Shown here piece by piece: positions 45,169 through 48,100 of a stretch of DNA of 64,000 nt (within the stretch, counting starts at the first letter, position 1; the number at the start of each line of letters is the position of its first letter). Source of the stretch: Escherichia phage WPEC1; sequence record PV659873.1. One strand, 5' to 3'. The translations under genes were made by a program, and so were the position numbers. The notes under the pieces are model-generated. The model was not told the DNA's origin and ran no database searches. It saw nothing but the letters and a program-made list of their open reading frames with translations.

Positions 45169-48100
45169 CTAGTGACAGGACGCCCAGGAATTACCCACAT
45201 CGTATCCGGCAGTAAGCTGAACGTTAAGATTGTAAAATTCTCCAGCCTTGGTAACAGCTAAAGCGGCAAGTTCACCTGCCCGACTATAGGCTGTAAACCA
45301 TCCACCTTTGGGAGATTCATGAATGTTAGCCCAAATTTGCCCTGTCTCTTTTTCCTTATTATGCTTCCATTCTTCGACTTTAGCAAGGCATTCTTTATCA
45401 ATTTTCTTTTGTTCTTCAGGATCGTCTACTTTCTTCCAACCTAATGATTCCGGTGAAAACCATTTGAATTCTACAAGGTTACGAGAAACTTCAAGCTGGG
45501 CTTCATCGTGATATGCAATCATTTGTTGCACGAAGTCTTTATTCTTCCAGTCATCTTTAAAGAAGTCAACACTTAGCCCTTCTTCTTCGATCATGTCATC
45601 ATAAATAACCATTGCACGTTTAGCACAGATAACCCCACCGCTTTGGAACAGAGAGTTAAGAATCGCGTGAGCAGAACGAGTAGGAACCTTACGACCGTCA
45701 ATACCCAAAACATATTGTTTACCAGTCTTAACCCAGAAATCGTTTAAACGTTCTTTAAGACGCGCCAATGGGAATGCAGCTTCCCAGAAAGCATCGAACA
45801 CCAATTGACCTGTAAACTTGTCGCTACCAATTGTTTTAGCAACCTTGTCGGCTTGTGCACCATAGGTAATACCATACTTAACAGATTTAGCAGGACTACG
45901 TTCAAATTTACGTCCAATAGTTTCAGTGATACGTTTTGCCATCATTGTGTGAACATCATTAGGTTTCTCTAACAACAGAGCGTTACAATATTCGTGTGGC
46001 TCCGGCTCGTACCGCCAACAGTTTCCTGTGATGGTAATGCAGTCTTTCTGACGCATGACCCACGTACCAAGTTCTGTTTGTGGACACCAAACATCCTCTA
46101 CACCCCACTCTTCAATAGTCAAACTTTGAACAGGAATGTGAGAGCGGTTAGTCAATGTTGCCACTTTTACTTTCTGCTCTTTTGTATTGAAAGCTACAGA
46201 GATATTGCCTCCATGCACCAGGTACGAGGCAGTTAAAGCTGCTTCAAAAAGTTCACCTGGGTTCTGCGCCCAACGCCAAACAGGTTTTTGTTTATGTTCG
46301 TGCCAGTAACCATCTGCAATCAAGAAACCTTCCAAGAAAGCTACACGCTCGGCATGAGACATATTGACTACACGTTCTACCCACGGAACATCCCATTTAC
46401 CTTGTTGAACAGAAGTTAAACTATTTACCTGATCTTGTTCCATGTTAAATGGAGCATTACAAATAATGTTATCTCCTGTGCAAAGCTCGGCAGTTGTTCT
46501 GACTTTAGGCACATAAGTATTCCCTTTACTACGGGTATTAACATACCAACGGTGATCTGCTGTTGCACGGTAAGTGTGTGATTTCCCTTTAATCTCAAAC
46601 GTCTTACTATTTTTATAGAAGACCTTACCTTTTACTTTAGTCCATTCTTTCAGACCTGTTTCAGCATTGTACCCTAAAATCTCATCCCCTTCCTTCAGGT
46701 CGTGATATCCTACCCAACCTTTACGAGTCAAAGCTTGAGCATCCATCGGCACACAGTAATGCGATTCAATTTTTGCTTCCAAAGAGTCGAAGTCGTAGCC
46801 GATCTGGAAGTATTTAGGAACCTCTACACCAAACAAGTTACGCATCTCCCATCCAAACAAAGATGTGACACGAGGAATATTAGCTACAGATCTATGTTTC
46901 ATACGAGAGGTTGCAGCATCACATGTAGCGGCTGGGGTAGGAATACGACCATCCGCCCTTACTGCGGCTAAGAAACCTTTATCGTATTCTTGATCTTCTT
47001 CATCTTCTTCCCAATCAGCACCACCACCTAAAATAGAGTTCCTACGATGCTTATACGTTAAGTATTCTACAATCTGTGTAGCATAAGGAAATTTCTCACC
47101 CAAAGCTTGCAGGTTAGGACAAATTTCTTTTTCCTGACCTTTGGTAAAACATGGGTTAGTCAATACTTTAAGACCGCGACCTTTACCTTTTGCTATACGC
47201 TCTTGAATCTTCCTTTCCAAGGTTTCCGGTGTGCACTCCAGATGATCACAACGGTCCTGACAAAAATTAGAAGATAGAGTTTGCTCAACGTAAGCTCGAA
47301 TACCTTTCTGAAGTTCTTCCTCACTCTTTTTAATCTTTGTGCCAGATTTAAGCGTCAAGTCTTTATCTTTATATTCAGACGGTACCCAACCTAATCCTAC
47401 AAGCCAGTTTTTAATATGGGTAGTATCGTTCAATGTTGCAGGGATATTAGGATCACACAAAGGCTCATCTGCTGCAACTGGCAGTTTCCACTCTTTCCCC
47501 AACATCACTAACCACCAATCCCCATCCCTCTCTTCCAAATGACCATCATGTTTCTTAGCAAAATTGATCATATGGTTAGTTGGCTCTAAGTTCTTTTTAA
47601 TTTGCAACTTAGGTGGAATAAAAGCCTTAAGATAACCTTTTGTTGCTGGTTTAGGTGGCAAAATAGGCTCAACGAGTAAACGAAGACGCTCCATTTCTGC
47701 ATCCAAAAAAGCAAGGTTCTCTTCTGCTTGCTTCATGTTAAAAGCAAATCCACGGTGTTCCTGGCGTGTAATAATGTCTGCTACACGTTGTTCAAGTTCA
47801 AACGGACCTTCCCATTTATCATAATCACCCCATTCTTCCATAAGGTAATTATATACACTCGTGTTGGCTTTGTTGTCATAGATACAGTAATAAAGCATAT
47901 CCGCAGCAAAAGTCTTAAAGCGATCTTCTTCTGGAATTTCTTTACGAAAATCTATTTTTACATCACCACCTGCCTTTCGAGAAAGTGCTGCCAAGCTATG
48001 TCCTGATTTGCCCTCAATCTTTCGATCTGGGTTTAACACTTTACTCAAAATCAGGGAGTCAATAAGTTTTACCTTATTTTTGCCCCACGTGTTATATTTA

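Follow-up and report, generated by a model that had tools for sequence, protein, structure and literature searches.

The window analysed here is a 64,000-nucleotide (nt) stretch of the genome of Escherichia phage WPEC1 (sequence record PV659873.1), and its minus strand carries, at 45169..48501, the gene for a family A (T7-like) DNA polymerase precursor of 1110 amino acids (aa) whose catalytic core is interrupted by a 245-residue insert that we read as an intein. The gene, identified from the list of open reading frames (ORFs), the Pfam DNA_pol_A domain and a match to T7 DNA polymerase, is a single frame without an internal stop and encodes the phage's only family A DNA polymerase. Escherichia phages WPEC2, WPEC4 and WPEC6 (Phapecoctavirus) have an identical gene (100%), annotated as 'DNA polymerase I', and the genes of many further listed phages of Phapecoctavirus are 96.7–98.5% identical to it. 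A first-pass annotation had proposed that about 245 residues were inserted directly after polymerase motif A and formed an intein, giving their coordinates without a strand. Since the plus-strand translation of 46021-46755 is full of stops, the insert is encoded on the minus strand, as are all of the features described below for this gene.

The N-extein (residues 1-582; 46756..48501) ends in motif A, DFDSLEAKIESHY (46756-46794), which aligns to GIDASGLELRCLAHF of T7 DNA polymerase. The C-extein (precursor residues 828-1110 plus the stop codon; 45169..46020) begins at the codon of the +1 Cys (46018-46020) and contains motif B, RSPAKSVKYGITYG (45859-45900), and motif C, YHDE (45502-45513), so that all three polymerase motifs that had been called recognisable are present at verified coordinates. 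Between the exteins lies the intein, precursor residues 583-827 (46021..46755), which is delimited by translation, by alleles without the insert, by fold and by profile. Its translation is exactly 245 residues long and reads CVPMDAQALTRKGW...ITITGN, from Cys1 to the closing Thr-Gly-Asn, with ...DFDSLEAKIESHY upstream and CWRYEPEPHEY downstream; the insertion point is 12 residues past the catalytic Asp of motif A, within the part of the catalytic core that separates motif A from motif B. Because there is a Cys on either side, the DNA alone leaves the boundaries uncertain by one codon, and as judged from the residues at the junctions, Cys1...Asn/Cys+1 (the slash marking a junction, here and below) is the only register that fits intein chemistry. 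In a composition scan, the GC content of the intein (0.424) was not distinct from that of the C-extein (0.420).

An AlphaFold (AF2) model of the insert, with a predicted local distance difference test (pLDDT) score of 80 and a predicted template modelling (pTM) score of 0.78, divides it into two Hint lobes separated by a linker and a small central domain. The N-terminal lobe (intein residues 1-104; 46444..46755) is all-beta with a pLDDT of ∼90 and holds block A, with Cys1, and block B, T65-A-D-H68-R-W70 (TADHRW; 46546-46563), which aligns to the inteins NrdJ-1, Spl DnaX and AceL NrdHF. A low-confidence linker follows (residues 105-120; 46396..46443), with pLDDT below 50 at residues 109-120, and leads into a single LAGLIDADG subdomain (residues 121-205; 46141..46395), which was assigned from secondary structure, Foldseek and profile and which carries the motif VAFLEGFLIADGYW with Asp148 (46303-46344) and, further on, Gln164. 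The C-terminal lobe (residues 206-245; 46021..46140), placed from the model and the sequence, contains block F, DVWC224PQTELGTWVMRQ (46048-46095), and block G, ITIT243-G244-N245 (ITITGN; 46021-46038). Every motif of the first-pass annotation (a starting Cys, TADHRW, a LAGLIDADG-like motif, and ITITGN followed by Cys) was therefore found, as were the two oddities it had pointed out, a penultimate Gly and only one LAGLIDADG motif.

The insert is polymorphic among close relatives of the window. Thirty-three phage records cover the whole polymerase gene including the insert, while other phages, such as Schickermooser, tuntematon, ESCO37 and BI-EHEC, match it at ∼98% in two pieces spanning 2598 bp, exactly 735 bp shorter. 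The annotated Schickermooser polymerase has 865 aa, the length that remains when the insert is removed from the window's precursor and that had been predicted for the spliced product, and the alignment of the two shows a clean gap of 245 residues with the junction HY/CWRY. Because natural alleles lacking exactly 735 bp exist, the agreement with the 865-aa prediction is more than chance. The empty target site reads GAATCACACTAC/TGTTGGCGATAC, and in Schickermooser ...GAATCACACTAC/TGTTGGCGATACGAG..., while in the sister genus Justusliebigvirus both occupied alleles (PaulScherrer, VEcB, cardinal) and an empty one (viral contig L006) occur with identical flanks. Among 22 polymerase relatives on viral contigs, the insert is found only in the two closest, L004 and L005, and none of 19 more distant PolA homologues (L006-L009, L011-L025) has an insertion at this site. 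The insert is not a conserved structural insertion, the explanation that the first-pass annotation had set against its own, since polymerases as close as 43-52% identity have nothing at the site.

Removal of the insert also restores the polymerase to the form of its homologues. After in-silico splicing, the C-terminal 435 residues align to T7 DNA polymerase as one stretch (E = 1.6e-19), in which the spliced junction HY/C stands opposite T7 HF/M without a gap, and Pfam DNA_pol_A matches in one stretch of 54 bits, versus two stretches totalling 43.8 bits in the precursor.

The identity of the insert itself was examined by fold and by profile. In a Foldseek search of the PDB with the AF2 model, the top 50 matches were without exception inteins or Hint domains; the endonuclease-bearing TliVMA intein came first (E = 8e-9), followed by PI-SceI and PI-PfuI. 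A single-sequence search of the PDB with the insert gave weak matches to VMA and RecA inteins, and the weak single-sequence matches were inteins in every case. With block B aligned, the profile of the insert's family matches three solved inteins, NrdJ-1, Spl DnaX and AceL NrdHF (E = 6.5e-5 to 1.3e-3). Distant relatives of the insert are hosted by a range of unrelated phage proteins, namely tape measure, portal, large terminase (TerL), NrdA/NrdB, DNA methylase and other PolAs. Such a spread over unrelated host proteins reads as the classic intein signature.

Several observations weigh against this identification or against the splicing route that it implies. The alignment behind the AF2 model was shallow, with 10 sequences. 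The Pfam Intein_splicing model (PF14890) matches at E = 0.007 and 16.6 bits against a cut-off of 35.8, and the NCBIfam intein models do not match the insert. The alignment to intein profiles that had been suggested as a check thus split, the curated models staying below threshold and the family profile reaching solved inteins. Neither of the two histidines that usually assist Asn cyclisation is present, the penultimate residue being Gly and blocks F and G being free of His. The insert carries a full class-3 Trp/Cys/Thr triad, so Cys224 could replace Cys1 as the first nucleophile. Finally, in the limited set of literature searched (phi92/Phapecoctavirus), no experimental work on this intein was found.

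Set against the features expected of an intein, the insert is an in-frame insertion in a conserved host motif with a seamless junction in homologues, it retains Cys1, Thr65, His68, Asn245 and Cys+1, and its model has the horseshoe-like beta fold of a Hint domain. It has Gly244 in place of the penultimate His (block G position 6), which is the usual but not an obligatory helper of Asn cyclisation, and falls short of the curated Pfam and NCBIfam scores; membership is still possible with such a residue. Bacterial intein-like (BIL) domains are Hint domains found in variable, non-conserved regions, usually without a +1 nucleophile; a BIL domain was rejected here since the insert has Cys+1 and interrupts conserved catalytic-core sequence, between motif A and motif B.

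We regard it as very likely that the insert is a real, splicing-competent intein of ∼245 aa in the motif-A region of a family A polymerase, as the first-pass annotation had proposed and as the alleles without the insert, the Hint fold, the family profile, the T7 alignment and the relatives in unrelated hosts support. The other explanations, that it is a non-splicing structural insertion, a tolerated dead intein, an intron or a free-standing endonuclease gene, share the sub-threshold Pfam and NCBIfam scores and the missing penultimate His as points in their favor, but are together highly improbable: the insert separates motif A from motif B in an enzyme that is essential, and still it is carried by at least 33 records of independently isolated lytic phages, with intact catalytic residues under strong purifying selection, in a continuous reading frame without a stop and with a Hint fold. 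An intron is further unsupported since no group I or group II intron or other RNA family of Rfam matches the region. That the intein splices we infer from three things, a host gene that is essential, catalytic residues that are intact and selection that is purifying, and it almost certainly does splice; the order of the chemical steps given next is a proposal. The 1110-aa precursor would be translated first, and its Hint domain (residues 1-104 and 206-245) would then excise itself, joining ...IESHY to CWRY..., so that the 245-aa intein is set free and the polymerase is left in an active form of 865 aa. The standard class-1 route seems most likely, in which Cys1 would form a thioester with the help of Thr65 and His68, the N-extein would be transferred to Cys+1, and cyclisation of Asn245 and an S-to-N shift would complete the process; the invariant Cys224, Trp70 and Thr243 probably also have a role in catalysis, of whatever kind.

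The family to which the insert belongs was missed by a word-indexed homologue search, which returned nine proteins only, and was exposed by an exhaustive profile search that gave 7528 cluster representatives at E ≤ 1e-3, of which 499 at E ≤ 1e-30. We took the best 150 proteins together with the nine earlier ones, which gave 166 complete inteins, as the sample for a census. Cys1, Thr(B:7) and His(B:10), the latter two being T65 and H68 of the window, are present in 166/166, W70 in 161/166 and the Thr-Gly-Asn end in 163/166; among the members aligned there, Cys224 and Asn245 are each kept in 161/161 and Thr243 and Gly244 each in 160/161. The +1 residue varies, with Ser in 91, Thr in 48 and Cys in 27.

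By these counts, the penultimate Gly is a fixed trait of the family, not decay. The suggestion that the penultimate Gly and the single LAGLIDADG motif might mark the intein as atypical or degenerate does not hold, since both are conserved family traits under purifying selection with no sign of decay. There is also a characterised parallel, in that the penultimate residue of mycobacteriophage class-1 inteins is often not His (Kelley et al. 2016, PMC5050341), and the intein of the Bethlehem gp51 recombination directionality factor (RDF), with a penultimate Gly, splices completely and becomes slower when the Gly is changed to His (PMC5050341). Like the window intein, the Bethlehem RDF intein is a phage intein with Cys1, a penultimate Gly and a LAGLIDADG-type endonuclease in a DNA-metabolism protein; unlike it, its endonuclease is of the full two-motif kind and toxic, that is, active.

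Alongside the class-1 residues, the insert holds the residues that mark class-3 inteins, a feature absent from the first-pass annotation. Trp70 lies two residues past the block-B His, Cys224 (in 'VWC') 21 residues ahead of the terminal Asn, and Thr243 two residues ahead of it, which places them at the class-3-defining Trp(B:12), Cys(F:4) and Thr(G:5) positions (together, WCT), as read from sequence rather than from a solved structure. The spacing of 21 equals that in three class-3 inteins, MP-Be DnaB (Cys320 to Asn341), Msm DnaB-1 (118 to 139) and Mle DnaB (124 to 145) (PMC2807308, PMC5222942). Class 3 is, however, defined by a missing N-terminal nucleophile (PMC2807308), and the window intein, which has the triad, belongs to a family in which Cys1 is universal. 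In class-3 inteins the block-F Cys acts first, as an obligate nucleophile, by way of a block-F branched intermediate. In the Trp, Cys and Thr the intein resembles the class-3 inteins MP-Be DnaB, Msm DnaB-1 and MchDnaB1 as well as MP-Catera Gp206, and it shares with class-3 and mixed-motif inteins the spacing to the terminal Asn and an association with phages. The classical class-3 inteins differ in having no N-terminal nucleophile, usually a penultimate His, mostly helicase or terminase P-loops as insertion sites, and Ser or Thr at +1, whereas the window intein has Cys1, Thr(B:7), Gly(G:6) and Cys+1. WCT inteins with Ser1 or Cys1 have reportedly been tested by Tori and Perler in 2011.

Since class-1 residues and a class-3 triad are combined, the splicing route is ambiguous. 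Splicing could be class-3-like or hybrid, in that Cys224, activated by His68, Trp70 and Thr243, would attack the N-terminal junction or relay the N-extein from Cys1, ahead of its transfer to the +1 residue, so that Cys1 would be neither the sole nor perhaps the main initiating nucleophile. The near-invariance of the triad, its position and spacing, and the Ser or Thr that 139/166 members have at +1, as class-3 inteins do, fit this route; so do the class-3 inteins 6zgq, 6rix and 6bs8, which stand high among the fold matches to mini-inteins, and the precedent of three WCT inteins with Ser1 or Cys1 described by Tori et al. (PMC2807308), given that MP-Catera Gp206, a WCT intein with such a first residue, was listed as class 3 in later work (PMC3196547). 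We nevertheless consider it rather unlikely: the presence of Cys1 and Thr(B:7) in every member argues that Cys1 is needed, class 3 by definition lacks a nucleophile of this type, the window intein has Cys at +1, and a polyphyletic set of class-1 inteins has Cys at F:4 too (PMC3196547). Because Cys1 and Thr(B:7) are invariant, we favor a class-1 start in which Cys224 would have an essential assisting or relay role.

The combination matters beyond this locus because the origin of class 3 is disputed. Beyer et al. argued that a direct origin of class 3 from class 1 is impossible, since a WCT triad grafted onto a class-1 intein fails (PMC7664689), and a phage-origin hypothesis is cited in PMC3196547. 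A large natural family with both class-1 and class-3 apparatus bears on the argument of Beyer et al., and if Cys224 should work as a nucleophile beside Cys1, the family would bear on the origin of class-3 splicing itself.

The window was compared with the Justusliebigvirus alleles for synonymous and non-synonymous divergence. Synonymous divergence (dS) of the exteins is above 1.4 or not computable (saturated), versus 0.20–0.45 for the intein, where the ratio of non-synonymous to synonymous rates (dN/dS) is 0.02–0.04. The central domain alone has 16 synonymous and 3 non-synonymous changes (dN/dS 0.04), and against KP13-16, the allele that has diverged furthest, it has 54 synonymous and 24 non-synonymous differences. 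In nucleotide sequence the inteins of the two genera share 92% identity, versus 73-79% for the exteins, and since the intein is less diverged than its exteins, it has moved between the genera since their split. The intein alleles are mosaic between the genera (window versus cardinal, VEcB and PaulScherrer): against cardinal, the first ∼105 nt of the intein hold 22 differences (∼21%), as in the flanks, and the other 630 nt only 8 (∼1%), a pattern that points to a recombination breakpoint inside the intein. On this indirect population evidence, the element is mobile at the DNA level among phi92-like phages, and its movement may be due to its own nuclease, to a trans-acting nuclease or to plain recombination.

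In the model, the central domain is one alpha-beta-beta-alpha-beta-beta unit (residues 121-205) after the disordered linker. Modelled alone, it matches mostly LAGLIDADG-fold proteins in Foldseek (WhiA, I-CeuI, I-OnuI, PI-SceI, I-AniI), at weak E-values of 0.01–0.2 such as are expected for a unit of only ∼85 residues; Pfam LAGLIDADG_3 on the insert likewise stays below threshold (E = 0.15). A profile of 28 diverse central domains matches I-HjeMI, I-DmoI and I-AniI, with weak statistics, and aligns the Asp and Gln to the active-site Asp and Gln. Helix-ending Asp148-Gly149 and Gln164 thus stand where a LAGLIDADG fold has its active site, Gln164 being invariant across the 28 diverse members, and among 119 single-domain members the acidic motif residue is Asp or Glu in 117, the next residue Gly in 117 and the mid-helix residue small in 118. 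The central subdomain, which is conserved, is probably still functional. It is, however, only one subdomain, unlike a PI-SceI-type LAGLIDADG endonuclease, which has two motifs or subdomains (blocks C and E) in one chain. A comparison can also be made to the homodimeric single-motif enzymes I-CreI, I-CeuI and I-MsoI, which share one LAGLIDADG helix ending in Asp-Gly, a beta-beta-alpha-beta-beta order after the helix, and a Gln where the second strand ends; these differ in being free-standing, intron-encoded proteins of ∼160-210 aa with extra C-terminal helices, whereas the window subdomain is a core of ∼85 residues embedded in a Hint domain.

Because there is a single subdomain, DNA cutting would need two intein molecules paired. 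The central domain could be an active homing endonuclease that, like I-CreI, works as a homodimer of two inteins and homes into empty alleles during co-infection, a possibility that we hold tentatively. It would account for the lone subdomain with its retained Asp/Glu, Gly and small residue, for the invariant Gln164 aligned to the active-site Gln of I-DmoI and I-HjeMI, for a dN/dS of ∼0.04, and for a sporadic distribution in which the intein is younger than its host gene. It also fits the lengths in the census, where 107/166 inteins have 240-259 aa at many insertion sites and the ∼245-aa single-subdomain layout is by sequence the commonest architecture among the best-matching members, a count biased because the search profile was built from single-motif members. 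In contrast, purifying selection could reflect a mere need to fold in order to free an essential enzyme, the element could move by recombination between co-infecting phages or with a trans-acting nuclease, and the fold and profile matches of so small a domain are weak. In a palindromy scan, the empty target site did not rise above background (best 6/11, background mean 2.8), a result that lends a symmetric homodimer site no support but leaves room for one, and no published precedent for a single-motif intein endonuclease was found in the limited set of literature searched.

The opposite account takes the central domain for an inactive remnant left by a two-motif endonuclease, in an intein that would now persist solely through vertical inheritance and ordinary recombination, late in the homing cycle; it is a substantial possibility, though still short of an even chance. 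One argument for it comes from the two-motif relatives (nepoznato, L010, L024 and KIL1; 324-341 aa) in the same polymerase family: the window domain aligns to the second half of the 324-aa nepoznato intein (33% identity over 130 residues), whose first LAGLIDADG subdomain, as in other two-motif relatives, lies where the window has its linker and a gap of ∼80 residues. Intein endonucleases named as characterised in the literature found are all two-motif (PMC5050341), and mini-intein derivatives exist in the family (P0005, P0008, P0009). Decay should, however, cost catalytic residues and let replacements build up, yet the Asp/Glu, Gly and Gln are kept across more than 100 clusters, each less than 50% identical; the low dN/dS, the recurrence of the ∼245-aa layout at many insertion sites and the movement of the intein between genera after their split speak against a remnant as well.

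Other polymerases of these phages carry an intein elsewhere. Phages nepoznato, ukendt, nieznany, AV126 and phiWec187 and four 'Campylobacter phage' records lack the intein at the window's site (site a) and have instead a related 324-aa two-motif intein 50 extein residues downstream, within motif B (site b; KYG/C...TGN/CTYG in nepoznato, MN850571, 1105-4674); every phage of the set examined has one of the two sites occupied and the other empty. The motif-B inteins, which are found in the nepoznato group, Pseudomonas phage KIL1 and metagenomic PolAs, belong to the same Hint family and the same host enzyme as the window intein (31-33% identity) and share a CVP.D...LTR.GW start, a TGN end and the WCT triad. 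They differ in their insertion site in the O helix, their length of 324-341 aa and their two LAGLIDADG motifs, and their carriers have Thr for Cys at the +1 position of site a, where the DNA has strongly diverged. Motif B is a frequent insertion site, with 34/166 of the family inteins, and site a itself is occupied in the distant metagenomic PolAs P0042, P0045 and P0060 by family inteins of 253-256 aa with Thr at +1.

The nepoznato-type sequence at site a is ACGTGGAGATATGAT. The extein DNA of nepoznato and Schickermooser is ∼97% identical outside the intein-site region, and the two diverge from ∼35 nt upstream of site a to ∼25 nt beyond site b (extein nt 1711-1920, around 46756-46794 and 45859-46020 of the window), with a peak of 17 mismatches in 30 nt exactly at site a and a change of the +1 Cys to Thr. 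The stretch resembles a tract co-converted from a divergent donor, and it may make the allele refractory to the site-a intein. Four records of ∼146 kb labelled as 'Campylobacter phage' (C. jejuni; MG065639, MG065645, MG065656 and MG065689) match the E. coli phage polymerase and have the same motif-B intein match as nepoznato, at 32.1% identity to the query in both. Their host labels look doubtful.

The existence of this intein is already known from database annotation of sister phages. GenBank MZ501100 (phage PaulScherrer, Bas60) names an 'intein-containing DNA polymerase precursor' with an 'intein' mat_peptide, PQ821640 (phage SD2) uses the same product name, and the BASEL paper reports that inteins were identified by comparative genomics (PMC8594841). 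The PaulScherrer/SD2 allele shares the insertion site and the 245-aa length of the window intein at 97.6% amino-acid identity, whereas the host polymerases are only ∼73-79% identical in DNA, versus 92% for the intein; the PaulScherrer mat_peptide (3004-3738) is one codon off, running VPMD...GNC with a Val start and a Cys end, which is chemically implausible. The same intein occurs unannotated in phi92, ESCO5, anhysbys, ZCKP1 and ∼25 other records, and in most of the remaining records the gene is given only as 'DNA polymerase I', as in RefSeq and in the record that is identical to the window, or as 'hypothetical protein'. For annotation, the useful points are that the mature enzyme would have 865 aa and that the published boundaries are one codon off.

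As a single object, an intein of this kind carries little weight, inteins being common in phage replication genes, and only the family-level picture of a single subdomain with a mixed catalytic signature might be new. We suggest only tentatively, as less likely than not, that this is a large phage intein family, which we did not find described as such, combining a single I-CreI-like LAGLIDADG subdomain with class-1 apparatus and a class-3 triad, whose nuclease would work as a homodimer. Were that so, it would be the first homodimeric intein-encoded homing endonuclease and would place the transition from LAGLIDADG homodimer to pseudo-dimer inside one intein family. An active dimeric nuclease would also make the subdomain a minimal homing module of ∼85 residues, with homodimeric and fused forms in one lineage. 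A compact, His-independent phage intein working in E. coli could, given its predicted splicing, interest protein engineers.

Some further observations were made on the family. The best-matching members (P0010-P0157) share an invariant signature of Cys1, TxxHxW, VWC and TGN, several host proteins (e.g. P0014, P0020, P0034, P0038 and P0055) contain two tandem intein copies, and a frequent host is an unidentified phage protein with the junction DVYP/SAYANGW. Mycobacterium phage Pinkcreek (MZ958745, 2001-3023) carries in its hypothetical protein gp135, whose gene adjoins baseplate and minor-tail genes, a family intein of 341 aa that has two LAGLIDADG motifs and the signature Cys1, NHRW, VVWC and FTGN/S. 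No other phage record in the collection is at least 60% identical to the Pinkcreek intein, and the idea that it is the experimentally studied Catera Gp206 intein was rejected, Pinkcreek being the sole record at ≥99% identity.

Elsewhere in the 64-kb window, the replication and nucleotide genes (10428-13798, 14575-15573, 49829-51607 and 59865-60926, all on the minus strand) show only the expected Pfam domains, with no intein domain reported among them by Pfam. They encode the large (746 aa) and small subunits of ribonucleotide reductase, a ThyX-like protein and a Toprim/DnaB-type primase-helicase. The window has no tRNA genes, and it also encodes a TelA-like protein.

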